A DNA stretch of 33,385 nt, taken from assembly GCA_031283835.1 (NCBI GenBank), contig JAITBA010000081.1, forward strand, positions 1-33,385, in the 5' to 3' direction. This DNA comes from Oscillospiraceae bacterium. Its GTDB lineage: Bacteria; Bacillota; Clostridia; Oscillospirales; Acutalibacteraceae. The notes under the pieces were generated by a model, which saw only the letters and a program-made list of their open reading frames with translations, ran no database searches and was not told the origin of the DNA. Position numbers and translations under genes: made by a program. This document shows positions 3,977-28,585 of the stretch, in pieces; position 1 is the first letter of the stretch; each line of letters begins with the position of its first letter.

Positions 3977-7336
<3,360 letters not shown>

Positions 7337-7435
7337 CCGTTCCACTTTTTGGCACAAGTTCTGCAAAAAAATGTACATTTTCTTTCGTTTTTTGGCGCGC
7401 AAAACCTTGCCGGCAAAAATCTTTTAGAAAAAAGC

Positions 7436-7464
7436 TTGCTTTTTTGCGCGTAATCGTGTAAAAT
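7436..7464 (+). promoter_or_regulatory. Sigma-A type promoter: TTGCTT, 17-nt spacer, TAAAAT
   Basis: TTGCTT at 7436-7441, 17-nt spacer, TAAAAT at 7459-7464, upstream of the small secreted-protein gene. Confidence 0.45.
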
Positions 7465-7512
7465 AAAAATCAACAGAATCATTGGCACCAAACCCAAAGG
7501 AGGTATTTGCAC

Positions 7513-7848
7513 ATGAACACCCGTAAACTTCTGGCAGTGCTGCTGTGTGTGGCAACCGTGTTTTCCGTCATGACTGCCGTGGCCTACGCCGCACAATCCG
7601 CCGAGACGGCGCCGGTAGTGTATGCGCCCCCCTCGCAAGAAGCCACCACCACGCCCCCCCCCGAAACCACAAAAAGCTTCATCGAAAACCTCGATACCTG
7701 GTGGAACGGCGGTTTCCCCGAAGTCGACACCGTCCTGTGGAACAGCGGTTTCCGCACGGTAGTGGATTTCCTGGTTGCCGGCTTCCAGTTTCTTCTAAAA
7801 ATCGTCGGCTTCGATGCCTGGGGCGGCGGCATCCTCAACGGCGGCTAA
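7513..7848 (+). CDS. Small secreted hypothetical protein with an N-terminal signal peptide
   Basis: RBS AAAGGAGG upstream. Starts MNTRKLLAVLLCVATVFSVMTAVAYAAQSA (a signal peptide with an AYA-A cleavage site). Contains a Pro/Thr-rich linker. Followed by two rho-independent terminators. Confidence 0.55.
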   Translation: MNTRKLLAVLLCVATVFSVMTAVAYAAQSAETAPVVYAPPSQEATTTPPPETTKSFIENLDTWWNGGFPEVDTVLWNSGFRTVVDFLVAGFQFLLKIVGFDAWGGGILNGG

Positions 7849-7887
7849 GTCGCTTTGCTGTGTTTTTGCGGCAAACAACCAAAAGCG

Positions 7888-7921
7888 CCCCTGCAAACAT
7901 TTTGCAGGGGTCAGTGGTTTT
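7888..7921 (+). terminator. Rho-independent terminator (10-bp perfect stem, 3-nt loop, T-run)
   Basis: CCCCTGCAAA-CAT-TTTGCAGGGG followed by TCAGTGGTTTTTGTG. Confidence 0.5.
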
Positions 7922-7965
7922 TGTGTTCTGTCGCGCGGTTCCGTCGCAACCCCCCGAAATTGCGA

Positions 7966-8004
7966 ACCGCAACTGCGCTGCTTCAGTTGCGGTCTGCTTT
8001 TTTT
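7966..8004 (+). terminator. Rho-independent terminator, likely bidirectional between convergent genes
   Basis: ACCGCAACTG-cgctgctt-CAGTTGCGGT followed by CTGCTTTTTTT. An A-run on the other side could serve the convergent abrB-like gene. Confidence 0.6.
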
Positions 8005-8016
8005 GGCTGCGATAGA

Positions 8017-8286
8017 TTATTCGCCCTCCACCTGCTGCCCAACAATCTGTTCAAGATTGTCAACACAGTTGCGACAAATTTTGTAACCTGAATACTCGAT
8101 CATGCCGTCCGCACTTCCGCAGAATGTACACGCAGGCATATGCTTGCGCAAAACAATGCGATCCCCCTCCATAGAAATCTCAAGGGAATCTTCTCTGTCG
8201 TTGACTTTTAACATGCGACGGTACTCCTTGGGGATTACAATTCTGCCGACTTCGTCAATACCGCGGATAATTCCGGTCGTTCTCAT
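8017..8286 (-). CDS. abrB: AbrB/SpoVT-family transition-state regulator (swapped-hairpin DNA-binding domain)
   Basis: Begins MRTTGIIRGIDEVGRIVIPKEYRRMLKVNDREDSLEI, which closely matches the AbrB N-domain (MKSTGIVRKVDELGRVVIPIELRR). About 89 aa. RBS AGGAAAGAAGAGGA precedes the ATG. The longer track ORF (to 8358) is an upstream in-frame extension. Confidence 0.85.
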   Translation of the reverse strand: MRTTGIIRGIDEVGRIVIPKEYRRMLKVNDREDSLEISMEGDRIVLRKHMPACTFCGSADGMIEYSGYKICRNCVDNLEQIVGQQVEGE

Positions 8287-8579
8287 GCCGATCCTCTTCT
8301 TTCCTCTTTTCTTAACGATGAAGCCAGATATAACGCAGCGCAATTTATTATAGCACATAATGTAGAAAAAAGGAAGAGTATTGCCATACGAAATTTATAG
8401 AGAAAAATTCCCGTTTTTTGTGCATGATGATCTCGCGCTGCTGTTTTAATGTGCAAATTGTTCAAATCTAGTAACGCTTTAGCACGTGAGCGCAGCAGGG
8501 TTGTCATTTTTGTTTCTATTTGTCAGGGTTTGTGGTCCATTTGACACAAGTAGTTCATTAATATTTAAATAAAAACATC

Positions 8580-8608
8580 TTGACAGAATCGAATTAAAAT
8601 AGTATAAT
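8580..8608 (+). promoter_or_regulatory. Consensus sigma-A promoter: TTGACA, 17-nt spacer, TATAAT, for phoH-ybeY
   Basis: TTGACA at 8580-8585, 17-nt spacer, TATAAT at 8603-8608, about 40 nt upstream of the phoH ATG. Confidence 0.55.
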
Positions 8609-8648
8609 TTCATATAATTGCTTTTTTATTGCAGCCATCGGAGGTATT

Positions 8649-9626
8649 ATGACGGAAGAGCGCGTCCTCCCCATCGACCATATAGAAAACATCGTGCAGC
8701 TGTTTGGCAGCTTTGACGAAAACGTGAAGACCATCGAAGCGGCTTGCGGCGCTAGCATCCTTTGCCGCGGCAGTGAGCTGAAAATCATCGGCGAACCCGA
8801 AGCCGCAGACAAAGCGGCCCGTGCCGTCCAGGGTCTGCTCACCCTGATTCAAAAGGGCGAACCCCTCACCGACCAAAGCGTGCGCTACGTGCTCACGCTG
8901 GTGGAGGAAGGCGGCGACACCGCCGAAAAACTGGCCGCGCTCACCCACGGCAGTGTGTGCGTCACCGCCCAAGGCAAGCCTGTCAAGCCCAAAACCCTGG
9001 GCCAAAAAAAATACATCGAGGCCATCAAAAAAAACACCATCACCCTGGGGGTGGGGCCCGCGGGCACGGGCAAAACCTACCTAGCCGTGGCCATGGCCGT
9101 CACCGCCTTTCGCGCCAAAGAGGTCAGCCGCATCATCCTCACCCGCCCGGCTGTCGAAGCGGGCGAAAAACTGGGCTTTTTGCCCGGCGATTTGCAGCAA
9201 AAAGTCGATCCCTACCTGCGCCCGCTTTATGACGCGCTGTTCGAGATGATGGGCGCGGAGCAATTTGCCCGGCAGCAGGAGCGCGGCGCGATTGAAGTGG
9301 CCCCCCTGGCCTACATGCGTGGCCGCACCCTCGACGACAGCTTCATCCTCCTCGACGAGGCGCAAAACACCAGCATTGAGCAGATGAAGATGTTCCTCAC
9401 CCGCCTGGGCAACAACAGCAAAATCATCGTCACCGGCGATATCACGCAGATTGACCTGCCGGCAGGCAAACCCTCGGGCCTTGTGAACGCGGTGAAGGTG
9501 CTGCGGGGCGTGGAGGATATCGCCATCATCCGGTTTAACGAAAAAGACGTCGTGCGCCACCGTTTGGTGCAGGCGATCATTAAAGCCTACGAGAAAGAAG
9601 AGGTTCGCAAAACACATGGCAAATAA
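8649..9626 (+). CDS. phoH: PhoH-family ATPase (KH-like N-terminal domain + PhoH P-loop NTPase)
   Basis: RBS GGAGGT upstream. Walker A GPAGTGKTYLAVAMAV, plus the DEAQN Walker B-like box and PhoH-family conserved regions. Confidence 0.9.
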   Translation: MTEERVLPIDHIENIVQLFGSFDENVKTIEAACGASILCRGSELKIIGEPEAADKAARAVQGLLTLIQKGEPLTDQSVRYVLTLVEEGGDTAEKLAALTHGSVCVTAQGKPVKPKTLGQKKYIEAIKKNTITLGVGPAGTGKTYLAVAMAVTAFRAKEVSRIILTRPAVEAGEKLGFLPGDLQQKVDPYLRPLYDALFEMMGAEQFARQQERGAIEVAPLAYMRGRTLDDSFILLDEAQNTSIEQMKMFLTRLGNNSKIIVTGDITQIDLPAGKPSGLVNAVKVLRGVEDIAIIRFNEKDVVRHRLVQAIIKAYEKEEVRKTHGK

Positions 9627-10119
9627 AATCAAGGTGATTATTTCTGACGACCAACAGGAGGTGCGCGTCCCCACGGGGATCCGTCTGCTGCTGCGCCGCG
9701 CGTGCACAGCTGTTTTGGCGCAAGAAAAATTCAAAGACCCGGCAGAAATCAGCGTGCGCTTTGTCGATCACGACGAAATCCGCTACCTAAACGCGCAGCA
9801 CCGCAACAAAGACGATGTGACCGACGTGCTCAGTTTTCCTCTGGGAGAAAACGGGCACTACGACACCAACCTCAGCACCGGCGCGAAGGTGCTGGGCGAT
9901 ATCGTGATTGACCTGCCCCGCGCGGCCGAGCAAGCCCGTCTCTACGGCCACACCCTTCAGCGGGAGCTGGCTTTTCTCACCGTGCACTCCATGCTGCACC
10001 TGCTGGGCTACAACCACGAGCAAAGCGGCATCGACAGCGTGCGCATGCGCGAGAAAGAGGAGGCTGTGCTTGCCCAACTGGGCCTGCCCCGCGGGCACAG
10101 CTACATCCTCGAGGAATAA
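9616..10119 (+). CDS. ybeY: Endoribonuclease YbeY (rRNA maturation factor)
   Basis: The zinc-binding H-x3-H-x5-H motif HSMLHLLGYNHE is present. About 167 aa. Overlaps the phoH stop, a conserved phoH-ybeY arrangement. Confidence 0.92.
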   Translation: MANKIKVIISDDQQEVRVPTGIRLLLRRACTAVLAQEKFKDPAEISVRFVDHDEIRYLNAQHRNKDDVTDVLSFPLGENGHYDTNLSTGAKVLGDIVIDLPRAAEQARLYGHTLQRELAFLTVHSMLHLLGYNHEQSGIDSVRMREKEEAVLAQLGLPRGHSYILEE

Positions 10120-17789: not shown

Positions 17790-18121
17790 GGCGCGCCCTC
17801 CGTCTTTTGTGTACGAAAACATCTCCTATAATATAGTATACCACGTTTTTTCTCGAAAAGCAAGCCCTTGCTGTCGAATTCCCGCGCTGCCCTTTTTGTC
17901 CAGCCCCGCCATCGCGTCCTTGCCGTGCTTGTCGGCTTTGTCTATCTCAATTTTAGCGGAAAATCCGTTGACGTTGGGCACGGAGAGCAGCCCGATGGCG
18001 GTGCTGTCGTCTGCCCTGCTTTTTTATACTGTTTTGCGAATAGAAACAACACTCCCCCCATCCCTGAACGCCTATACAAAAATTGCATGGGCGTATTTTT
18101 TTGAGAAAGGAATTGAAAACA

Positions 18122-18706
18122 ATGACAAAATTTGCCTATGTACGCATCTCAACGGCAGAACAGAACGAACTGAGACAGGTTATCGCCATGGAGGACCTCA
18201 AAATCCCAAAAGAAAACATCTACATGGATAAGTTGTCGGGCAAAAACACCGCGCGTCCGGGTTTGCAAAAACTTTTAGCCACCGTAAAGCAGGGCGACGT
18301 CATCTATGTTGAATCCTTCAGCCGCTTTGCCCGCAATACAAGGGATTTATTAGATCTTGTGGAACAACTCTCCGAAATGGGCGTGGGATTTGTGAGCCTG
18401 AAAGAAAAAATCGACACAGGCACACCCACGGGCAAGTTTATGCTGACCGTGTTTGCGGGCATCGCCGAACTCGAGCGGGCTTTCATTTTGCAGCGTTCAA
18501 GGGAGGGCATTGAAGCGGCAAGACGCGCGGGCAAACACCTCGGCAGACCAGTAAAAAACGCCCCCGATGACTTTGACACGCTGGTCAAAGACTGGGAGCG
18601 CAAGGTGATTCCACTGTCAAAAGTCCTCGAACAGTGCGGCAGCATCAGCGAGAGCACCTTCTACCGAAGACGCCGGGAACACCGCATTATCAAAGGAAAA
18701 AAATAA
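18122..18706 (+). CDS. Small serine recombinase (resolvase/invertase family: catalytic domain + C-terminal HTH)
   Basis: Begins MTKFAYVRISTAEQNELRQ with the catalytic Ser in the YVRIST motif. Has the resolvase-type core (GDVIYVESFSRFARNTRDLLDLVEQL, GVGFVSL) and a C-terminal HTH. About 195 aa, a size typical of Hin/Gin/Fim-type invertases. Its stop lies 8 bp from the left inverted repeat. Confidence 0.88.
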   Translation: MTKFAYVRISTAEQNELRQVIAMEDLKIPKENIYMDKLSGKNTARPGLQKLLATVKQGDVIYVESFSRFARNTRDLLDLVEQLSEMGVGFVSLKEKIDTGTPTGKFMLTVFAGIAELERAFILQRSREGIEAARRAGKHLGRPVKNAPDDFDTLVKDWERKVIPLSKVLEQCGSISESTFYRRRREHRIIKGKK

Positions 18707-18713
18707 AGAAAAC

Positions 18714-18740
18714 TGTCAAAAGGCATACCTTTTGAGAGCG
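18714..18740. repeat. Left inverted repeat of the putative invertible segment (27 bp)
   Basis: Exact reverse complement of 18869-18895. Confidence 0.8.
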
Positions 18741-18794
18741 GTCGGGGTTGAAGAAAATTATTGAAAAATTCATAGATTGTCTTCAATTTTGCTG

Positions 18795-18823
18795 TTGCAT
18801 TTTTCGATAAAATGTGTTAAAAT
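18795..18823 (+). promoter_or_regulatory. Sigma-A type promoter inside the invertible segment, currently oriented toward the downstream island operon
   Basis: TTGCAT at 18795-18800, 17-nt spacer, TAAAAT at 18818-18823. The first downstream gene starts at 18949. Confidence 0.55.
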
Positions 18824-18868
18824 AGACAAGTTATTAGGGTTTTGGTTCGAAAACGCCCGAAATTTGCT

Positions 18869-18895
18869 CGCTCTCAAAAGGTATGCCTTTTGACA
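18869..18895. repeat. Right inverted repeat of the putative invertible segment (27 bp)
   Basis: Exact reverse complement of 18714-18740. Confidence 0.8.
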
Positions 18896-18948
18896 ATTTG
18901 CAGTAGACAGGTACAATCCAAATAAATGGGCTAACGGGGTGAATTTGT

Positions 18949-20121
18949 ATGGCGATAATCAACAGGATCAAATATGATGGAAATGCCGATGGTTCTTCGT
19001 GGCTGGTGCATAAGTATCCCTCAGAGAGCTTTGTTCTTGGTTCTCAATTGATTGTCAACCAAGGGCAAGAGGCGTTGTTTCTCAAAGGCGGCGCGGCTCT
19101 CGACCTGTTTTCTGCGGGTACGCACACGCTAGCAACAGGCAATCTTCCCCTGCTAAACAAATTGGTCAACCTTCCCTTTGGCGGCAAAACCCCTTTTGCC
19201 GCCGAGGTTTACTATGTCAACAAAACAGCACGTTTGGATTTGGGCTGGGGAACAAGCAATCCCATAGACTTTGAAGACCCGAAATATCATATTTTCTTAA
19301 ATGTAAGGATCAACGGTCAGTTTGGTATCACCATCAACGATACACGGCTCTTTATCTCGCGTATCATCGGCGCGGTTCCAAACGGCTCTGTTTCGAACTA
19401 CCTTGTTATCTTAAAATATTTTAACGGCGTTATTAACACGAAAGTCAAGTCAATCGTAGCAAAATTCATGCTGGAAAAGAATATCTCGTTTCTTGAAATA
19501 TCAGCGCATCTTGATGATTTATCAGGCGTGTGCCAGTCGGCTATTAGTGAAGAATTTGAGCGGTTTGGCGTTGAGATAGTAAACTTCTTTGTGGAAACCA
19601 TTAAACCGCGCGAGGAAGATCTCGAGGCGATGAAAAAGAAACGCGAGGAAGTTTCCGCAATGAAGCTCGAATTGGGTGAGCTTGGGCGTGACTTCTACGC
19701 ACAAAGACGCTCGTTTGATGTAATGGAAGAAATGGCGGGCACCCCTGGATCCGGCGAATTGGCGAATGCGGGAATCGGTCTTGGAATAGGGCTTGGCGCG
19801 GCGGGTCAAATGGGCGGTGCGTTTGCCGGAATAGCGCAAAACATCAATCTCAACCCGCAACCTCCAGCTTCGGGTGGGGCGCTTAAATGCACAAAATGCG
19901 GCGCAGGTAATCCTCCGGGTCAAAAATTCTGTGGTACATGCGGTGAAAAGATTGAGCTTGGAATTAAATGCGCAGACTGCGGTGCTGTCGTTCCGCCGGG
20001 GCAAAAATTTTGCGGAGAGTGCGGAAAACCGATAGCTAATATTAAATGTCCGGCTTGCGGCGTCGAAAATGCGCCCACTCAAAAATTCTGCGGCGGATGC
20101 GGCAATAAATTGGGAGGTTAA
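18949..20121 (+). CDS. SPFH/band-7 (stomatin/prohibitin-like) domain protein with three C-terminal zinc-ribbon modules and a Gly-rich linker
   Basis: The N-terminal ~260 aa look SPFH-like (COG4260-type architecture). A Gly-rich low-complexity linker (GIGLGIGLGAAGQMGGAFAG) follows. Three CxxCG...QKFCGxCG zinc-ribbon repeats are at the C-terminus. The gene is AT-rich relative to the backbone. Confidence 0.75.
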   Translation: MAIINRIKYDGNADGSSWLVHKYPSESFVLGSQLIVNQGQEALFLKGGAALDLFSAGTHTLATGNLPLLNKLVNLPFGGKTPFAAEVYYVNKTARLDLGWGTSNPIDFEDPKYHIFLNVRINGQFGITINDTRLFISRIIGAVPNGSVSNYLVILKYFNGVINTKVKSIVAKFMLEKNISFLEISAHLDDLSGVCQSAISEEFERFGVEIVNFFVETIKPREEDLEAMKKKREEVSAMKLELGELGRDFYAQRRSFDVMEEMAGTPGSGELANAGIGLGIGLGAAGQMGGAFAGIAQNINLNPQPPASGGALKCTKCGAGNPPGQKFCGTCGEKIELGIKCADCGAVVPPGQKFCGECGKPIANIKCPACGVENAPTQKFCGGCGNKLGG

Positions 20122-20124
20122 GAA

Positions 20125-20730
20125 GTGGCAACATTAAAGGTTTCTGTTTTAGAATGTCCGCAATGCGGCGCTCCCGTCAAACCGGGAAGCAAAACCTGTG
20201 ATAGATGTTACTCTGAGTACATCGTCACGTCCGTCAGTAGCTTGAAAAAGTTTGACAGCTCCGGCATCAAGAAATATCTTGACGGCTACAAAAAGAATGT
20301 GGGGCTTGGCTGCGAAAGCGCCGAACTCTACACAGCAATGGGCATATGCCATCTAACGCGAAAGGTTTACCCTCACGCAATTAATTATTTTGAAAAGGCA
20401 ATTGCCTTGCTGCCAGAGGACGGCGACACGTATTATTATGCGGCGGTCGCTTTGCTGGAGGGGAAAAAGGCGTTTCTGACGAACAGGCCGGTTATTGATA
20501 AAATCGAAACATATCTGGCGAACGCACTGGGATTGGATGATAAGCCTGAATACTATGCTCTCTATGCGTACATAAAGTACGATTACTTTTTCAGAAAATC
20601 ATTCAACACATCGCCAACATACCGTGAGCTTCTTGTCGAGGCAATCAACCACGGGTTCAACCGCTTTGAATCCGATGCCTTATACGAAACGCTTTCGGTT
20701 GCTTGTCCAGGCCCGCTTGTGGTCCGCTAA
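20125..20730 (+). CDS. Hypothetical protein with an N-terminal Zn-ribbon (CPQCG...CDRC) and a helical, TPR-like C-terminal region
   Basis: GTG start 4 nt after the upstream stop, with RBS GGGAGG 7 nt upstream. Has a CxxC-x13-CxxC ribbon and a helical repeat region rich in Tyr/Ala/Leu. Confidence 0.55.
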   Translation: MATLKVSVLECPQCGAPVKPGSKTCDRCYSEYIVTSVSSLKKFDSSGIKKYLDGYKKNVGLGCESAELYTAMGICHLTRKVYPHAINYFEKAIALLPEDGDTYYYAAVALLEGKKAFLTNRPVIDKIETYLANALGLDDKPEYYALYAYIKYDYFFRKSFNTSPTYRELLVEAINHGFNRFESDALYETLSVACPGPLVVR

Positions 20731-21000
20731 CATTATGTTTTCCCCATCAAAAAACCCGTGCATGTTTCGTGTTCCAATGTTGGGTTTTGGGGTTACACAT
20801 CGGAGCACAACGATGTTTTGAGGGAGGAGCGTTGAATGTCTATGGAAAATATTTGGCGTGGCAGCGGATAAATTTTTCCATGAATGGGTTTCGGCATCCT
20901 ATTGTTAAAATGCCGCAAAAGGTTCGTACAAATGCCGCTCGGTAATGAACCTTAAAATCTCTTGAGCGGCAAATCAAAAATTTTTGGGAGGAATTTTTTT

Positions 21001-21579
21001 ATGGCACAGACATCAACCACGGAACAACAACAGCGGTTATCGCAAATAAACTCACTTAAAACGGTAGCGAATGCAGAGCAGAAAATTGTAATTAATTATT
21101 TCACACAGTCTTGCTTCGGACCGAAGGATGAGAAATTCGACCAGGTTGTGAGCTCCTTGCGTTCGCGCCTGAATACTCGCCAAATGGCACTTAACAAAAT
21201 TGGCTTGGATGAAGATCAGTTAAAAGAAATTCCAGATATCTGCTTTGAAGGTTTCCAAACTGACACATGGAATAACGGAAAAATTGAAGGTTTTAGTAAA
21301 GCGGGCGCAGATACGCGTTGGCGTTCAGGCAAGTACGCTATAACGCACTTGTTTTTCTCACCTACGCAAGTTTATATGTATAAATACGAATTTTCTCTTT
21401 ATAGCAACGACAGGAAAGAGCGTACAGAAGAGTATTTTTATAGAGACATCACAAACTTCTCTACCTCCGACGAAACCGTTAATGCATATAACCCAAACTG
21501 CATAGGCGGTGTTAAGGTGGTTCCAGTTAGTACGCAGAGGTTTGAGTTGATTGTTCCGGGCGACCGTAATGAATATTGA
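21001..21579 (+). CDS. Hypothetical protein; paralog of the gene at 22192 (unknown family)
   Basis: RBS GGGAGG 9 nt upstream of the ATG at 21001. It shares the N-proximal segment QKIVINYFTQSCFG (QKKVIKYFNSTGLLG in the paralog) and a C-proximal block THLFFSPTQVYMYKYEF...EYFYRDITN with the 22192 gene. Confidence 0.55.
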   Translation: MAQTSTTEQQQRLSQINSLKTVANAEQKIVINYFTQSCFGPKDEKFDQVVSSLRSRLNTRQMALNKIGLDEDQLKEIPDICFEGFQTDTWNNGKIEGFSKAGADTRWRSGKYAITHLFFSPTQVYMYKYEFSLYSNDRKERTEEYFYRDITNFSTSDETVNAYNPNCIGGVKVVPVSTQRFELIVPGDRNEY

Positions 21580-21623
21580 ACAGAGCGTACGGGCGATGAA
21601 GGCAAAACTCCGCGAGAAGAAGA

Positions 21624-22115
21624 ATGCCTAAACGGAACAGGCAGGACAGCACGACCATATGGGATATTCTTGACAATCCTGCTGTTTGTGACGAAGAAAG
21701 CAGGGAACTTATCAGACCCGTGATTAAAATTAAAACGGTTATTATTTCTGTATTCGTTTGTTTGGTGATTACGGGTCTGATTTCTTTCGCACTCTCCTGC
21801 ATTGTTTGCGCTGTTTTAAAAAGCAAACAAGTAACGACGGTGGATGTGCATAGTGTTCTATTCATTTGCTTGTTGACCTGTTACATTCTTCTGTTCTTGC
21901 TGAGCCTAAGAAGAATCATGATTTTTTTCGTTATGCTTTATCAAGCTAAGGCAAGTGACCAAACCCGTTTAAGATGTGTTTTTGTCCCCAGTTGCTCTGA
22001 GTATATGATTTTGTCTCTAAAAAAATATGGGGCTATTGTTGGTCTCATCAAGGGGATTGGAAGATTACATCGTTGCAGAAATTCATACGGCATTGGCGGC
22101 GAGGACTATCCATAA
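21624..22115 (+). CDS. Membrane protein with a C-terminal YidD-like domain (membrane protein insertion efficiency factor family) and a two-TM N-terminal extension
   Basis: The C-terminal ~65 aa (MIFFVMLYQAKASDQTRLRCVFVPSCSEYMILSLKKYGAIVGLIKGIGRLHRCRNSYGIGGEDYP) match the YidD signature (FYQ...C-x-F-x-P-[ST]-C-S-x-Y ... RL-x-RC-x-P-x-GG-x-D-P). The N-terminal ~95 aa form two hydrophobic helices. An internal ATG at 21918 would yield a YidD-only 65-aa product, so the start is ambiguous. Confidence 0.55.
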   Translation: MPKRNRQDSTTIWDILDNPAVCDEESRELIRPVIKIKTVIISVFVCLVITGLISFALSCIVCAVLKSKQVTTVDVHSVLFICLLTCYILLFLLSLRRIMIFFVMLYQAKASDQTRLRCVFVPSCSEYMILSLKKYGAIVGLIKGIGRLHRCRNSYGIGGEDYP

Positions 22116-22191
22116 AACGAGGTTTTTCAATGGGTTTAGGCGTTGTCCCAAAATCAATGTCAAAAAGCAATAATTTAATGGAGGTAATATT

Positions 22192-22974
22192 ATGTTTCGT
22201 GCACTAAAAAGCAACGGCAATAAAGACTTTGCAAATAGCATAAGAGTTGGTACCGGCTTCATAGGGATGCGCGGCAGAACAAGCGAGCAAAAGAAAGTCA
22301 TCAAATACTTTAACAGCACAGGGCTTTTGGGCGCGATTTTCGGAATATCCAATGCCACGTTTGATGCGATTTTAGGTAACAAAATAAACGCTTGCAGGCA
22401 ATGGATTAACGCGCGGGCATTAAATGTGCATGGTATGGATGCTGACGAAGTCAAGGAAACTACCCCTATTCTTGTTGAAAACTATGCCTCTGAAAGCCGT
22501 TTTTTCAAAATATTCAATGACCGTACATTCCGCACCTCTGAATATCAGGTGACTTATTTGTTGTTTGGCGAAAAACAGATGTATGTGTATAGTCATACTT
22601 TCGACCTGACCAGCGAAAACACTACCGAACATACGAGAGAATATTTCTATGAGGATATAACCAACGTGGATGTCACTCAAAAGAAAATTGAATTTCCAAA
22701 TCCGCGTCCATTGCGGTATCTTTTGGGCGGAATTGGTTGTATTGTGCTCGGTGCATTGTTGGCACTTATCCCATTTATCGGCGTTCTCTTTGCCGTGTGC
22801 GGTCTTGTCGCAGGAATTATCGTAATGTTTTTCTTAGGTTATTCCCGGAGTGTAGTAGATAATTTGGTTTTGAGGCTGACCGTATCCGGCGATGAGTTTA
22901 TCTGTGCTATGAAGCCCGAAAACATGGCTGCGATACAGGGAATGAAAGCGAAAATCAGGGAAAAGAAAAAATAA
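22192..22974 (+). CDS. Hypothetical membrane-anchored protein; paralog of the 21001 gene with an added C-terminal TM helix
   Basis: RBS GGAGGT 8 nt upstream. It shares the EYFYEDITN block with the 21001 gene and has a hydrophobic segment LRYLLGGIGCIVLGALLALIPFIGVLFAVCGLVAGIIVMFFLGY. Confidence 0.6.
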   Translation: MFRALKSNGNKDFANSIRVGTGFIGMRGRTSEQKKVIKYFNSTGLLGAIFGISNATFDAILGNKINACRQWINARALNVHGMDADEVKETTPILVENYASESRFFKIFNDRTFRTSEYQVTYLLFGEKQMYVYSHTFDLTSENTTEHTREYFYEDITNVDVTQKKIEFPNPRPLRYLLGGIGCIVLGALLALIPFIGVLFAVCGLVAGIIVMFFLGYSRSVVDNLVLRLTVSGDEFICAMKPENMAAIQGMKAKIREKKK

Positions 22975-23027
22975 CAATTCTCGTTGTCGCGTGAGGCTAA
23001 AATGCAGTTAGGGGGGAGCGTTTCATC

Positions 23028-26000
23028 ATGCCAGACATCAAAAATGGTGCGGCAACAGATTTCTTGGCCACGTTTTTCATCGAAAATCGTGCCATTACAA
23101 AAAAGTTGAGCGACGTAATAAAAAACAGAGAAAACAGCTTGTTCCGCTCCGCATTAGGTTTGTCGAACGATTTTGTGTTGCCGTTTCTCAGCGAAGAAAG
23201 TGCTAACGACACTCCCTCCATCACCTATTCCCTCCGCAGCACGTTAAATTCCGATTTTACCGCTTACATAAATGACGAGGCTCAAAACCACCATGTCATC
23301 GCAAGCGGCGACTATGTTGTTTTCAAAAACCAAAACGGCGATACTTATATTCGCGTTCTATTCCTTGGCACAAACGAGATAAAACTTGGATACAAAAAAT
23401 ATGCGCTGAATAAAGGCAAAAACCTTTTTATCGGTCGGCAACAAGACAATGACATTTCTTTCGATTTTAGCGACCGTATTTCCCGCGAAAAGCATATTGC
23501 TATCAGAATGGATGAAAACGGCGATGTTTTCGCAGAAGATTTGAAGCGCAGTATTGGCGTTTATGTGAACGGAAAACAGACCCATTCGCAAAAGCTTTCT
23601 TTATTTGATGAAGTCACCGTAATGGGACTTTCGCTTGTGTACCTCGGAGGTTGTGTTGCCGTTAGAGATTTCAAAATTTTAAGTAACTGTGTTCCTGTAA
23701 CTGAATTTTCAGCAAAAGCTCCCATTGAAAAAACAGAGGTCAAATACTTTGTCCGCAACCCGCGAATCCTCAAATCGCTTGATACCGACCCGGTAGAAAT
23801 AGACGCGCCGCCAAATCCTCCTTCTCAGGATAAAACCCCTGCCATTTTGGTTTTAGGGCCGAGCGTAACCATGTCTTTGGTTATGATGGCGAGCTTGGGC
23901 GTATCGCTTACAAACGCATTAAGCGGCGGTGATATGAGTACAATCATTACCAGCGGCGTGATGGCTGTCGGTATGCTGATTGGTTCTTTGCTGTGGCCTG
24001 CGCTGCTGCGCAGCTATCAAAAACGCGCTGTTATCGCCGAAGAAAAACACAGACGGAGCAGCTACACCGGGTACATTTCTGAAATTGACAAAAAGTTATA
24101 CGCTAAATCGGATAGAACCATTCGCGTGTTAAACGAAACCTTTTCCCCCACACCGGAACAGGAATTGAAATTGCTTGATAGCGAAAGCGGACGACTGCGC
24201 TTGTGGGAACGTTCATTTAGCGATGAAGATTTTCTAAGAGTCCGCTTGGGCTTGGGTCAAGGTGCTTTTGGCGTAAATATCGCGACTCCCAAAGTGGGGT
24301 TTCAATTGCATGAGGACGAATTACGCAAGTTACCTGTTCGGATTTCCGAAAAATATTCTGTATTATCAAATGTGCCCGTTACGCTTGATTTGAAAAGCAA
24401 TCGGGCAGTCGGTCTTATTGGCTCTGCCGCAAATATTCACAACATCATCAACGAAATCATATTGAACTTGATTTCCCTCCATTCATATGATGAAGTCAAG
24501 TTAGCGATTGTTTGTTCCGAAAAGGAATCATCCCAATTTATCCATCTGCGAAACATCCCGCATATTTGGAGCGATGATAAAAAAATCAGATACTTCGCCA
24601 CAAACAATGATGAAGTCCACTATGTTTTCAACGCGATTGACGACATAGTAAAAGAACGCGAAAAAACACAAGAAAGAAAAACAACAACTCCCGGCAAGCC
24701 TCATTTTGTTTTGGTCATAACCGATGGTGCTTTGATTGAAGGCGAACCGTTGTTACGATATATTGAAAACCCTGATAACGCCGTAGGCATTACCTCTCTA
24801 TTTTCGTACGGAGATATTTCCAAGCTGCCGAAAGCCTGTAAGGCAATTATACAAAGCGACAATAGCAGAAGCGGTTATTATGCTAAAAATGAGAATAATA
24901 ATCGGTTTATCGAATTTGTGCCGGACACCTTGCAAGGTTCGGACATTAGCCGATTTGCAAGACGATTAGCGGCTCTTCCCGTTAAAGTCGATGCCCATGC
25001 TTTAGGTGTACCCGAAAGAATTACTTTCCTTCAAACTTTCAAAGCGGGCAACGTGGATGAGCTTGCAATAGAGAAGCATTGGAATAACAACAATTCAGCC
25101 AAATCGCTTTCTGCTCAAATTGGCGTTATGGCAGGCGGCAACCCTTTTTCGCTCGACATTCACGAAGCGTATCACGGATGTCATGGTCTGGTCGCAGGGA
25201 CGACTGGTTCCGGCAAGAGTGAATTTTTGCAAGCATTTGTTCTATCTTTGGCAATCAACTACAGCCCAAAAGAAATCGCCTTTGTGTTGGTGGATTTTAA
25301 GGGTGGCGATATGGCTCGTCCTTTTATGGAAAAGAAAAATGAAAACGGAGATGTTGTCAAACACGCTTTGCCGCATTTGGCGGCTATCATATCCAATCTT
25401 TCAGGGAATTTGCTATATAGGGCGTTGGTTTCTTTTAACGCTGAAATTAAATATAGACAAACGCTGTTCAATAAAGCCGCCGCCGCACTTGGCGTAGATA
25501 AATTGGACATCAATTCCTATCACAAATATTACAAAGCTGGCAAGCTGTCCGTGCCTTTGCCCCATTTGGTTATTATCATAGACGAGTTTGCCCAGCTCAA
25601 AACACAACAGCCCGATTTTTTGGCAGAGCTTATCAATGTTGCGCAAGTCGGTCGTAGCCTTGGTATTCACCTCATATTGGCTACCCAAAAGCCAAGCGGC
25701 GTTGTCGATCCACAGATTTGGAGCAACTCCCGTTTCAAAGTTTGCCTAAAAGTTGCGGACAAACAGGACAGCATTGACATGATAAACAAACCCGATTCCG
25801 CGCTTATTAAGAATCCGGGCAGATGCTATGTGCAAGTAGGCTATGATGAAGTATACGAATGTGTTCAATCGGGATATAGCGGAGCGGATTATGTGCCGAC
25901 AAAAACTTATTTGCCCGATGACGAGATAACGGTTCAAATGACCGACAGCACTGCAACACCCATTCATAGCGCAAAAATAGATTTTTCCGCAAACAAAACC

Positions 26001-27698
26001 GACAAGACCCAGCTTGAAGCGGTCGTTGCAAGCCTCATCACTCTCGGTACGGACAAAAACCTGTTTGTTAAGCCGTTGTGGAAAGATATGCTGCCGGAAC
26101 GCATTGCCCTTGACAGCTTGCAAACCGAAGCGAAAACCATACTCAAAGCAACCGTCGCGCTGACTGATTTCGTGCGCGTTCAAGAACAAAGACCGTTAGC
26201 GATTGATTTTGCCCAAACAGGACATTTGGGCATTTATGGGGCAAGCGGGACCGGAAAAACGACTTTCTTACAAACGCTGATCTATTCGCTCGTATGCGAC
26301 TATTCCTATACACCTGATGAGCTTACCATTTACGCTATGGATTTTGGCGGTCGCAGTCTTGGATATTTGAACGCCTTGCCTCACGTTGGTGATGTTGTGT
26401 TTGAGGACAACGAAGGCAAAATCGCCGCCCTTGCTGATACGCTGCAATCGATAATTGACGAAAGAAAACGCATTTTTGCGGCGAGCAATTGCGGAACATT
26501 TGTAGATTACCACGCAACAGGGAAACAGCGCATCCCGGCGGTTTTGGTGTTGATTGACAATTTCGCGCCTTTCCATGAAAAACACATGGATTTATCAGAG
26601 CGGTTTTTTGGGATCATCAGTGCAGGTAAAACGTACGGTGTTTATTTTGTGATTACCGGGAATACTCGCAATGCGATTTATTATAAGGTCGCCGAACACA
26701 TCTCCACATATTTCATGCTAAAAATGAACGACCCCGGCAACTATTTTGATGTTCTCAACCTTCGTCCTCCCATTACGCCGGAAGATATAAAGGGGCGCGG
26801 GATAACCGTTATTGACAAGGAGGTCGTTGAGTTTCAAGTTGCGTTGGCGCTTGACGGCGAATCAGAATCAGAGCGCGTCACTTTGATGTATGATACATAT
26901 GTCCAAATTGCTGAGGGCTGGACCGGAACAGTACCTCTCGCTCTTGCCGATGATTTTGTCGGCAGCGATGAGGATTATTCGGAAACATCAACGATTAGCT
27001 ATACATATACGATAAAAACTACGCCACCCGATATTGTCAGCGATGACGGCAACACTCTTGTACTTGGCAAATCCCCTACCGGGGCATCGCTTTACGGCAT
27101 AAACTTGGAAGACCATTTTAAATGCGTTGTTTGCGCTAACGAAAATGAATCGTTGAACAATTATTACAAAAAGCTAACTGCGTGGATATTGAAACACGAA
27201 AATCGAAAGGTGTTCTTCGTTGACGATGCAAGCGGGGTATTTTCTGACATAACTTCCGTCGGTGGTGTCCGTTATATTCGAGGTTCCGATGAGCTGGATG
27301 CATTGCTTGCATTATTAAAGCCGGAGTTAAATTCCCGGTTAGATGATGATTCCGCTGGCTTCGGTGAGATATTTATAATCCTTTCAGATTTTGGCGCATT
27401 CTTTGATATGTTATCCGATGAGCAAGCCGATGTGATGCGGAAAATCACTCGTTACATAGACTTGCCAAAATATAAAATGTGTTTTATCTGTGGCTTCAAC
27501 GTGCAGAATGATTTAGGCGAAAAGAGCAATGACCGATTGTTCACAGACTTAATTGTAAATGCAGTTAATTATGTCGTGTTCCCAAAGAGTTACGATGAAT
27601 CCCGCAGTAAAATTGAGAATTTCCCGCTCATTCACGATGTAAAAAACGCAGAAATATATTTTTGCCAAGAAGATAAAAACACAAAGATAAGGTGGTGA
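23028..27698 (+). CDS. essC: EssC/YukB-like type VII secretion FtsK/SpoIIIE-family ATPase (N-terminal FHA region, TM helices, three P-loop ATPase modules)
   Basis: 1556 aa. FHA-like region (LFIGRQQDNDISFDFSDRISREKHIAIRMDENGDVFAEDLKRSIGVYVNG). Two TM helices (ILVLGPSVTMSLVMMASLGV, IITSGVMAVGMLIGSLLWPALL). Walker A motifs GLVAGTTGSGKSEFLQ and GIYGASGTGKTTFLQ, plus a degenerate third module. Walker B-like IIIDEFAQL. Confidence 0.85.
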   Translation: MPDIKNGAATDFLATFFIENRAITKKLSDVIKNRENSLFRSALGLSNDFVLPFLSEESANDTPSITYSLRSTLNSDFTAYINDEAQNHHVIASGDYVVFKNQNGDTYIRVLFLGTNEIKLGYKKYALNKGKNLFIGRQQDNDISFDFSDRISREKHIAIRMDENGDVFAEDLKRSIGVYVNGKQTHSQKLSLFDEVTVMGLSLVYLGGCVAVRDFKILSNCVPVTEFSAKAPIEKTEVKYFVRNPRILKSLDTDPVEIDAPPNPPSQDKTPAILVLGPSVTMSLVMMASLGVSLTNALSGGDMSTIITSGVMAVGMLIGSLLWPALLRSYQKRAVIAEEKHRRSSYTGYISEIDKKLYAKSDRTIRVLNETFSPTPEQELKLLDSESGRLRLWERSFSDEDFLRVRLGLGQGAFGVNIATPKVGFQLHEDELRKLPVRISEKYSVLSNVPVTLDLKSNRAVGLIGSAANIHNIINEIILNLISLHSYDEVKLAIVCSEKESSQFIHLRNIPHIWSDDKKIRYFATNNDEVHYVFNAIDDIVKEREKTQERKTTTPGKPHFVLVITDGALIEGEPLLRYIENPDNAVGITSLFSYGDISKLPKACKAIIQSDNSRSGYYAKNENNNRFIEFVPDTLQGSDISRFARRLAALPVKVDAHALGVPERITFLQTFKAGNVDELAIEKHWNNNNSAKSLSAQIGVMAGGNPFSLDIHEAYHGCHGLVAGTTGSGKSEFLQAFVLSLAINYSPKEIAFVLVDFKGGDMARPFMEKKNENGDVVKHALPHLAAIISNLSGNLLYRALVSFNAEIKYRQTLFNKAAAALGVDKLDINSYHKYYKAGKLSVPLPHLVIIIDEFAQLKTQQPDFLAELINVAQVGRSLGIHLILATQKPSGVVDPQIWSNSRFKVCLKVADKQDSIDMINKPDSALIKNPGRCYVQVGYDEVYECVQSGYSGADYVPTKTYLPDDEITVQMTDSTATPIHSAKIDFSANKTDKTQLEAVVASLITLGTDKNLFVKPLWKDMLPERIALDSLQTEAKTILKATVALTDFVRVQEQRPLAIDFAQTGHLGIYGASGTGKTTFLQTLIYSLVCDYSYTPDELTIYAMDFGGRSLGYLNALPHVGDVVFEDNEGKIAALADTLQSIIDERKRIFAASNCGTFVDYHATGKQRIPAVLVLIDNFAPFHEKHMDLSERFFGIISAGKTYGVYFVITGNTRNAIYYKVAEHISTYFMLKMNDPGNYFDVLNLRPPITPEDIKGRGITVIDKEVVEFQVALALDGESESERVTLMYDTYVQIAEGWTGTVPLALADDFVGSDEDYSETSTISYTYTIKTTPPDIVSDDGNTLVLGKSPTGASLYGINLEDHFKCVVCANENESLNNYYKKLTAWILKHENRKVFFVDDASGVFSDITSVGGVRYIRGSDELDALLALLKPELNSRLDDDSAGFGEIFIILSDFGAFFDMLSDEQADVMRKITRYIDLPKYKMCFICGFNVQNDLGEKSNDRLFTDLIVNAVNYVVFPKSYDESRSKIENFPLIHDVKNAEIYFCQEDKNTKIRW

Positions 27699-27703
27699 AA
27701 CCA

Positions 27704-27952
27704 ATGGGGAAAATACCTGTTACAGTAAACATTCCGGCAATCAGCCAAAACCATGATTTTCTAATCCCTGCGACTATGGCGGTTCGCGATGTTGTCCAAC
27801 TGATGGTAAATATCTTGGTTTCAGAGTATGGTGTTTCCAACGTCCTTTCCAATATATCCTTGCTTGATGAAAGCGATGGAAAGGCGTTGAGAACAGATTG
27901 TAGTTTCCAGCAACTTGGCGTTACAGCCGGTGCGAAGCTAATACTAATCTAA
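27704..27952 (+). CDS. esaB: YukD/EsaB-like ubiquitin-fold T7SS accessory protein
   Basis: 82 aa, with its ATG 6 nt after the EssC stop. The N-terminal beta-strand pattern IPVTVNIP...FLIPATMAV and the C-terminal GVTAGAKLILI resemble B. subtilis YukD (…CGITNGDRLEIM). Confidence 0.65.
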   Translation: MGKIPVTVNIPAISQNHDFLIPATMAVRDVVQLMVNILVSEYGVSNVLSNISLLDESDGKALRTDCSFQQLGVTAGAKLILI

Positions 27953-27973
27953 GGAGGAAGGAGGCATGTTGAA

Positions 27974-28279
27974 ATGGGATTCAGGATAAATCACTCAAAG
28001 GTCATTTCACAGGCAAATTCCATTGCCGATGATGCTGACAGACTTGGTTCGCAGGTCAATCAGCTAACGGCAATGGAGCAGGATGTTCGCATGGCTTGGA
28101 AAGGGCAAGCCGCGGACACGTTTCTTAAAAGGCTTGCCACGCTGAAAGGTGAGATAAGCCGAACAAAGCAACAAATGGCTAATCTGGCTTCAACCATAAG
28201 GTATTGTGCCGATAGGATTCAGCGCGAAGACGAAGAAGCTGAAAGACGCGCCGCCGCCCTGAAAACCTCTGGCAATTAG
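27974..28279 (+). CDS. esxA: WXG100-family (EsxA/ESAT-6-like) small secreted protein
   Basis: 101 aa and predicted helical hairpin. The central W-x-G motif is MAWKGQAADTF. RBS AAGGAGGAAGGAGG upstream. Its stop TAG overlaps the first bases of MITE copy B. Confidence 0.75.
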   Translation: MGFRINHSKVISQANSIADDADRLGSQVNQLTAMEQDVRMAWKGQAADTFLKRLATLKGEISRTKQQMANLASTIRYCADRIQREDEEAERRAAALKTSGN

Positions 28280-28440
28280 GGCGTGTTGACACTATCCGAA
28301 ATGTCCAGATTTTGAGCGGATTTTTTGTCGGGCAAGGCAATTTTTTTGCAGTCATACTTTCGTATTACAAAAAAAATAACGCAGAACGGCGGAAAATCCG
28401 CCAGAAGATGGGCGTTGAGCGTTAGTGTCAACACGCCCTA
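28277..28440. mobile_element. MITE-like miniature inverted-repeat element, copy B (same orientation as copy A)
   Basis: About 98% identical to 12855-13018 (3 substitutions). Has the same 18-bp terminal inverted repeats and is flanked by TA on both sides. Confidence 0.6.
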
Positions 28441-28461: not shown

Positions 28462-28497
28462 GCCCCCTGCTAATTGATAGCAGGGGCTTTCATTTTC
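28462..28497 (+). terminator. Rho-independent terminator closing the island operon
   Basis: GCCCCCTGC-taattgata-GCAGGGGGC followed by TTTCATTTT. Confidence 0.65.
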
Positions 28498-28556: not shown

Positions 28557-28585
28557 TTGACATTTCCATTCAAAATCGGTATAAT
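28557..28585 (+). promoter_or_regulatory. Perfect-consensus sigma-A promoter: TTGACA, 17-nt spacer, TATAAT, for folB-folK
   Basis: TTGACA at 28557-28562, 17-nt spacer, TATAAT at 28580-28585, about 47 nt upstream of the folB ATG. Confidence 0.6.

Follow-up and report, generated by a model that had tools for sequence, protein, structure and literature searches.

Is the type VII secretion-like operon of an Oscillospiraceae bacterium switched by an invertible promoter? The question is raised by contig JAITBA010000081.1 of GenBank assembly GCA_031283835.1, of which positions 1 to 33,385 were analyzed (hereafter, the window). In this stretch of 33,385 nucleotides, a gene for a small serine recombinase is followed by two inverted repeats enclosing 128 bp, beyond which an operon encoding an SPFH protein, an EssC-type ATPase, and a WXG100 protein begins. 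Invertible-promoter phase variation is well documented in Bacteroides and enterobacteria and much less so in uncultured, gut-dominant Clostridia. Type VII secretion-like systems are usually tied to interbacterial antagonism and envelope functions. We consider it probable that the locus is an invertible promoter switch (inverton) fronting the SPFH-EssC-WXG100 operon. Comparison among related contigs shows both orientations of the segment, a family-wide module, helical phasing of the sites, and an asymmetric arrangement of terminator-like elements; we further infer that the window copy still flips and that operon expression is dependent on the segment. The locus very probably belongs to a known kind of inverton, within a widespread and apparently uncharacterized serine-invertase family.

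Inverted repeats and recombinase in the window

The two repeat arms (Table 1) are 31 nt long, are 97% complementary, and have 128 nt between them. Nested in them is a perfect 27-nt inverted repeat (18714-18740 and 18869-18895). The number of perfect 27-nt inverted repeats with a spacing of ≤400 nt expected by chance in the window is approximately 9e-10, and the repeat is not attributable to chance. Each arm carries a 20-bp palindrome, TCAAAAGG-CATA-CCTTTTGA, and these are the only two copies of this site in the window; of the five exact TCAAAAGG half-sites in the window, the two arms contain four. The sites are 158 bp apart from center to center, which corresponds to 15 helical turns. Crossover presumably takes place at the dyad center, where the dinucleotide (AT) is palindromic and polarity comes only from the neighboring bases (C-AT-A). 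An Rfam scan returned no RNA family, only subthreshold matches to plant microRNA precursors that are due to the long hairpin.

The Pfam Resolvase match of the recombinase spans residues 4 to 138. Its best solved relatives are structures of the Gin invertase (4m6f/3uj3; E = 6e-27), and the next match in the PDB is gamma-delta resolvase, aligned over residues 1 to 182 of 194. No Pfam helix-turn-helix family was matched at E ≤ 0.01, and entries for the Hin DNA-binding domain were absent among the PDB matches. The nucleophile motif Y-x-R-x-S is intact (YVRISTAEQ aligned with YVRVSTNDQ of Gin), with the serine near residue 10, and was found in 116 of 120 close homologs. A second motif reads S-R-F-x-R in place of D-R-L-x-R. 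This replacement of Asp by Ser occurs in 117 of the 120 closest homologs, whereas Asp is retained in 12 of 16 more distant switch-linked recombinases. It is not a sign of decay, because it is shared by homologs with switches in both states.

A sequence-only reading of this DNA had already proposed a recombinase gene directly upstream of an exact 27-nt inverted repeat, a near-palindrome within each repeat, and a 128-bp segment without an open reading frame (ORF). The Resolvase match and a 7-nt gap between the recombinase stop codon (18704-18706) and the 27-nt repeat bear out the first of these proposals. An inverted-repeat scan and the sequence itself confirm the repeat, the near-palindrome is now described as the 20-bp palindrome present in both arms, and the segment indeed contains no ORF.

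Table 1. Features of the putative promoter switch and its surroundings in the window
Feature	Coordinates	Strand	Basis or remarks
Small serine recombinase (DNA invertase-like), 194 aa	18122..18706	+	Pfam Resolvase, E = 1.6e-40
Terminator-like element, left-repeat hairpin + CAG-UUUUCUUUAUUUUUUU	18695..18735	-	Terminator scan
Left inverted repeat	18710..18740		Core TCAAAAGGCATACCTTTTGA, 18716-18735; dyad center A18725/T18726
Putative invertible segment, 128 bp, without ORF	18741..18868
Putative invertible promoter TTGCAT-17-TGT-TAAAAT, cargo-facing in the assembly	18795..18823	+	Sequence
Right inverted repeat	18869..18899		Core TCAAAAGGTATGCCTTTTGA, 18874-18893
Fixed junction promoter candidate TTGACA-16-TACAAT	18890..18917	+	11/12 consensus matches
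SPFH/Band-7 protein with C-terminal zinc ribbons, first cargo gene	18949..20121	+	Band_7_1, E = 4e-38; DZR, E = 5.6e-21
Zinc-ribbon/TPR protein	20125-20730	+
Unknown protein, 205 aa	20962-21579	+
YidD-domain protein	21624-22115	+
Unknown protein, 260 aa	22192-22974	+
EssC-type type VII secretion ATPase with FHA domain	23028..27698	+	TIGR03928 (T7_EssCb_Firm)
YukD-like small protein	27692-27952	+	YukD, 20.4 bits (below cutoff of 27)
WXG100 substrate	27974-28279	+	Pfam WXG100, 44.5 bits (above cutoff of 27.3)
Terminator-like hairpin, probable operon end	28464..28486	+	9 pairs (6 G-C), then CTTTCATTTT

A family of paired sites with helical phasing

The same module was present with every recombinase relative that we fetched (33 to 87% identity). 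In the five first-fetched relatives (79 to 87% identical) and in further short contigs, two TGTCAAAAGG-NNNN-CCTTTTGACA sites, inverted relative to each other, immediately follow the stop codon. In the 79 to 87% identical relatives, the sites bracket 154 to 164 bp, and a co-oriented gene set, different in each contig, lies beyond them. A site is found 3 to 30 bp past the recombinase stop codon in all relatives. A degenerate two-site scan of species-representative genomes identified 50 paired sites, mostly in Clostridia, of which approximately 19 abut a serine recombinase gene (33 to 68% identity) that ends 10 to 30 bp from one site. The commonest site center among the family loci is GG-TGTA-CC, and the central dinucleotides of the relatives are mostly asymmetric (GT/AC or AG/CT), with a few symmetric TATA centers.

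The scan admitted any spacing from 158 to 188 bp, and the family loci fell into classes of 158 to 160 bp (12 loci), 166 to 168 bp (17 loci), 177 to 179 bp (13 loci), and 186 to 188 bp (4 loci). These classes correspond to 15, 16, 17, and 18 turns of B-DNA, and the window belongs to the 15-turn class. When one value was taken per independent segment cluster (n = 27), the spacings were phased with a period of 9.5 to 10 bp (R = 0.80; Rayleigh p = 4e-8); in 20,000 uniform draws, this degree of phasing was never reached. A small loop bridged by protein would need phasing of this kind, which is difficult to account for if the sites work separately. The two sites are thus concluded to work as a pair, joined by a phased loop.

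The start codon of the cargo is, in most relatives, 20 to 60 nt past the right site, which leaves no room for another promoter. The cargo of the family includes a flagellar rod/hook protein, a BspA LRR protein, NPCBM and ricin-lectin proteins, C39 ABC exporters, a sigma factor, an E1/E2/JAB set, VWA and SLH proteins, and many proteins with signal peptides. The flagellar, LRR, lectin, exporter, and sigma-factor cargo is typical of phase variation. Several metagenome-assembled genomes (MAGs) contain more than one switch, namely, RGIG4372 (contigs L006, L036, and L037), Th196P3bin47 (L014, L018, and L043), and CAKUAS (L007 and L010). The copies, each comprising sites and segment, are 84 to 96% identical and occupy different loci, with only one adjacent recombinase gene, an arrangement that suggests control of a set of promoters in trans by one invertase.

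Two further observations were made during the survey of the family. The switches of close relatives have TIR/SEFIR and SLFN/AlbA_2 genes as upstream neighbors and an E2-CBASS/JAB/ThiF (E1) set downstream (L001:3943-5379; L002:1631-3007 and 7120-9835), and some family members may phase-vary antiphage systems. The two-site scan also detected pairs of identical palindromes in direct orientation, 173 to 188 bp apart, in unrelated phyla (L009, L016, L017, L021, L031, L033, and L042), with three such palindromes in a row in L033; these pairs seem to represent another type of palindromic repeat, dispersed or tandem.

Orientation of the segment

The evidence for both orientations comes from comparison between related contigs and not from within one population. 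The segments of L002 and L003 are identical at 129 of 157 positions only when one of them is flipped (score of 208, versus 28 when co-oriented and 22 ± 9 for shuffles). L001 likewise aligns with L003 and with L005 in the flipped state, and the pairs L001-L002 and L003-L005 are co-oriented. The conserved promoter block of the relatives (TTGATT-17-TGnTAnAAT) is directed at the cargo in L003/L004 and in L005 and at the recombinase gene in L001, L002, L176/L177, L178, L179/L180, and L181.

L179 and L180, contigs obtained from different samples, share 1,110 identical nt and part ways precisely at the outer end of the right repeat (L180:1089-1150 versus L179:1219-1276). L179 goes on into cargo, and L180 goes on into the 3' end of a window-like recombinase gene in reverse complement; this 3' end is approximately 87% identical to the left flank of L180 itself. 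Such a junction is as expected of a flipped state, or it may instead be an assembler join of paralogous or strain-variant loci. Two other candidate signs of inversion were discarded. Inner half-site variants that travel with the segment (L002, L003, and L176), a signature of central crossover, were dropped since the pattern was mixed by eye. Short homolog contigs as a sign of assembly breaks at the switch were rejected as uninformative, since short contigs make up most of the collection in any case.

The 128-bp segment of the window aligned with the segments of its relatives at background level in both orientations. Because this alignment was uninformative, the orientation in the window was called with a profile built from the promoter blocks of eight relatives. 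With this profile, the forward strand scored 7.2 (at 18794-18825) and the reverse strand -2.4; 1.35% of shuffles reached a score of 7.2. The assembled state is therefore taken to be ON, and the profile supports the earlier proposal that the promoter points at the downstream operon in this assembly. An exact-product look-up of the window recombinase returned no record, and the exact 27-mer had 0 matches in the species-representative genomes. The 20-nt core was also searched for in metagenomes; among the matches listed, most were single-site hairpins, and there was no near-identical locus.

Promoters, terminators, and proposed mechanism

The invertible promoter is composed of a -35 element, TTGCAT (18795-18800), a 17-nt spacer, and a -10 element, TAAAAT (18818-18823), preceded by TGT, which makes it an extended -10. 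It scores 8/12 plus the TG extension. At the left site, the hairpin read toward the recombinase gene has the form UCAAAAGGUAUGCCUUUUGA-CAG-UUUUCUUUAUUUUUUU, and this terminator-like element has a folding energy of -12 kcal/mol (z = -3.1). Among linked loci, 15 of 26 have such a hairpin with a T-run on the recombinase side, and none of 25 has one on the cargo side (Wilcoxon p = 2.6e-5). Judging from this pattern, the left-site terminator would probably stop transcripts from a flipped promoter. The sequence-only reading had envisaged that inversion drives antisense transcription into the recombinase gene. With a conserved hairpin and T-run on the recombinase side, the flipped promoter would fire into a terminator, and long antisense transcription of this kind is improbable.

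In the mechanism that we propose, dimers of the 194-aa recombinase would bind two hix-like sites of approximately 26 bp whose centers lie 158 bp apart, and two dimers would synapse via a small DNA loop. Cleavage at the central dinucleotide and rotation would then invert the 128-bp promoter segment. In the ON state, the promoter would read through the right site, a hairpin without a T-run, into the 9.3-kb operon; in the OFF state, the flipped promoter would meet the left-site hairpin and U-run, with probable early termination. The outcome would be a mixed population in which the secretion-like locus is expressed in some cells only.

Evidence against the switch and alternative explanations

Several observations weigh against this interpretation. 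With respect to the segment itself, the -35 element of the invertible promoter is weak, matching the consensus at 3/6 positions; the promoter noted in the sequence-only reading is present, and its description there as near-consensus was generous. A reverse-facing 9/12 promoter candidate is also present (18786-18757), and the segment shares only the promoter block with the segments of relatives. The palindromic AT at the dyad center would not, by itself, be predicted to enforce inversion over deletion. There was no second copy of the window locus in the collections searched, and inversion there was unobserved. The remaining points concern transcription from outside the segment. The -35 element of the junction promoter candidate (18890-18895) lies in the right repeat and its -10 element (18912-18917) in the flank, so the candidate is unmoved by inversion and, at 11/12 matches, could hold the operon on in both states. 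It is well placed: the leader up to the SPFH start has a normal length of 25 nt, and a ribosome-binding site, GGGGTGA (18936-18942), lies 6 nt before the ATG at 18949. No terminator-like site was found on the + strand between 18706 and 18949, and read-through from the recombinase gene into the cargo is possible.

This fixed promoter and the open path from the recombinase gene would together allow a switch that flips and modulates the operon without gating it. Transcription of the operon would proceed in either state, from the junction promoter, by recombinase read-through, or by both; the invertible promoter would add a boost, and recombinase bound at the right site might repress the fixed promoter. 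We regard this alternative as unlikely. A comparable -10 element occupies the junction in 2 of 25 family loci, which is approximately the chance level, so the fixed promoter may be fortuitous and selection for it is not evident; the remaining family relies on the invertible promoter alone. The earlier claim that inversion turns the operon off thus holds in its core, the invertible promoter, and needs the qualification that the OFF state may be leaky if the fixed junction promoter is active.

It is very unlikely, in our view, that the switch is frozen, i.e., that an inherited architecture now provides an ordinary fixed promoter, with the recombinase inactive or unexpressed or a host factor missing. 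A frozen state would agree with the single orientation available for the window locus, with the divergence of its segment from those of relatives, and with our scan of the region 5' of the recombinase gene, in which no promoter-like site was found. Decay would, however, be expected to erode the repeats, the ORF, and the spacing, whereas the 27-nt repeats are free of mismatches, both the recombinase ORF and its catalytic motifs are intact, and the 158-bp spacing falls in a permitted helical class. That there is no switch at all, with the recombinase acting as a resolvase or mobilization enzyme of a low-GC island and the repeats serving as res/att sites or terminator hairpins, is hardly credible: the recombinase gene does lie at the edge of such an island between cvpA and folB, a 12-nt direct repeat stands at both island edges, and the left repeat is terminator-like on the minus strand, but there are exactly two sites, inverted and 3' of the gene, with no further site where the island ends on the far side, neither helical phasing nor flipped homologs of the segment would be expected of res sites or terminators, and the same module precedes unrelated cargo in other genomes.

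The same operon behind other regulatory units

The interpretation as an invertible promoter switch can also be viewed from the side of the operon, which recurs elsewhere. The gene order SPFH, TPR, a protein of approximately 236 aa, YidD-domain protein, EssC, YukD-like protein, and WXG100 is found in L184 and L185 (SPFH 60% identical), where the operon contains three WXG100 genes (L184:7858-21155 and L185:765-14062) and is preceded by a two-component system composed of a LytTR response regulator and a histidine kinase. In L183 (SPFH 74% identical), which is among the closest homologs of the window operon, it is preceded by a tyrosine recombinase gene located between perfect 28-nt inverted repeats (L183:794-2080; JGI 3300042599 Ga0466706_058770). 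The arms of these repeats are palindromic, TTTCGTAAATGA-nnn-TCATTTACGAAA, with 1231 nt between them. The order of the four genes that follow SPFH in the window is also kept in L182, a contig that begins (L182:1-50) inside what is apparently the same 28-nt repeat. Possibly, the L183 element is invertible as well and gates this type of operon independently, by means of a tyrosine recombinase. Since the units that precede the operon vary (serine switch, LytTR system, and tyrosine element), this position is a variable regulatory slot, which supports a regulatory role for the switch of the window.

Comparison with known inversion systems

The sequence-only reading had termed the locus hin/fim-type. 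The inverton architecture implied by this term stands, and the term itself mixes enzyme classes, the enzyme here being a serine recombinase (Hin/Gin-like) and not a tyrosine recombinase (Fim). As in Hin, Gin, Cin, and Pin (e.g., the Salmonella H-segment and the phage Mu G-segment), the recombinase has a length of approximately 190 aa, with Gin as its best solved match, and is accompanied by two imperfectly palindromic inverted sites of approximately 26 bp that are kept across relatives. The half-sites, (C)T(G/A)TCAAAAGG, resemble the Hin half-site, TTATCAAAAACC. In the Hin system, the hix sites are approximately 26 bp long, expression is turned on and off by a promoter located on the invertible segment, and inversion requires a Fis-bound enhancer and HU (PMC3798978). 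The segment is about 1 kb in Hin and approximately 1 to 3 kb in the Hin/Gin class, whereas that of the window is 128 bp, with the recombinase gene outside and apparently without room or a detectable place for a Fis-type enhancer. This short segment and the helical phasing suggest direct small-loop synapsis. The window and its family also differ from Hin/Gin in a spacing locked to whole helical turns, in the palindromic central dinucleotide of the window, and in the S-R-F-x-R motif of the clade, which replaces D-R-L-x-R.

The closest architecture is that of Mpi in Bacteroides fragilis, likewise a serine invertase with short, promoter-only segments before surface-structure operons. MAGs of the relatives contain several switches and one linked invertase, and there is one switch in the 33-kb window. 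The recombinase is not a member of the Mpi family (NCBIfam NF009949, 50.7 bits versus a cutoff of 272), and the repeat sequence and host phylum differ. The fimS switch of Escherichia coli (FimB/FimE) and the RecV switches of Clostridioides difficile, the best-known invertible switches in Clostridia, also place a short invertible regulatory segment before a surface or secretion locus; they use tyrosine recombinases, unlike the window, and their nearer analog is the tyrosine-type element of L183. Invertons of the PhaseFinder type share the same operational definition, i.e., inverted repeats flanking a promoter segment beside a recombinase gene. For Clostridia-like genomes, the hCom2 survey gives a median of 3 invertons, and it links the largest Clostridia inverton group (group 139) to tyrosine recombinases; the TCAAAAGG site was not found in two text-form supplementary files of that survey (PMC11892184). 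In the literature covered, a scope without the inverton survey of Jiang et al. (2019), we found no description of this site family or of a type VII secretion system (T7SS) gated by inversion.

A wider interpretation is possible, and we offer it tentatively: the loci would form an undescribed, widespread Clostridia family of portable, enhancer-free serine-invertase promoter cassettes. In this family, sites 15 to 18 turns apart would pair in a tight loop, the recombinase-side site would double as a one-way terminator, one invertase would serve several cassettes, and cassettes would be exchanged before surface, flagellar, exporter, defense-like, and T7SS operons. If so, the window would contain the first T7SS gated by DNA inversion, and the same operon type would have independently gained a tyrosine-recombinase switch elsewhere. 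If the switch works, the T7SS-like apparatus would be expressed in part of the population, with consequences for strain-level behavior and for calls of presence or absence of such loci in metagenomes. Small serine-invertase switches would then be subject to testable design constraints, namely, whole-turn spacing, a terminator that works in one direction and is built from the recombination site, and a regulatory unit that can be exchanged before the operon, and the rules of the family could improve the computational detection of invertons.

Cargo operon and low-GC island

The + strand cargo genes run from 18949 to 28279 (Table 1). Judged by profile matches and gene order, the cargo is a conserved SPFH-EssC-WXG100 operon of 9.3 kb that resembles T7SSb (type VIIb secretion systems). 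The EssC protein scored 976 bits against TIGR03928 (cutoff of 778) and also matched FtsK_SpoIIIE (E = 3.6e-49) and FHA (E = 3.1e-9), so that an EssC above the equivalog cutoff and a WXG100 protein, as expected of T7SSb, are found together. EssA, EssB, and EsaA had no matches in the Pfam/NCBIfam profile search of the window proteins, and in their place are the SPFH/zinc-ribbon, TPR, and YidD-domain proteins and two unknown proteins. PADLOC made no defense-system assignment for the cargo, reporting only generic FtsK/HerA ATPase similarity. For the first cargo protein (SPFH), no homolog exceeded 77% identity.

The recombinase gene, the switch, and nine co-oriented genes make up a low-GC block, in which the GC content is 0.39 to 0.50 from approximately 17.9 to 28.6 kb, versus 0.55 to 0.66 in the flanks. 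The block is bordered by cvpA, CDP-alcohol phosphatidyltransferase, and clpB-like genes on one side and by folB/folK on the other, and there is no tRNA gene at its edges. The 12-nt direct repeat, GCGGAAAATCCG, occurs at both edges of the island (17956-17967 and 28389-28400), with approximately 0.008 occurrences expected by chance for the two boundary regions; the right copy lies within a local hairpin. These direct repeats could mark the insertion boundaries of an island of approximately 10.4 to 10.6 kb. Just past the island, before folB/folK, lies a sigma-70 promoter sequence with 12/12 consensus matches (TTGACA-17-TATAAT; 28557-28585).

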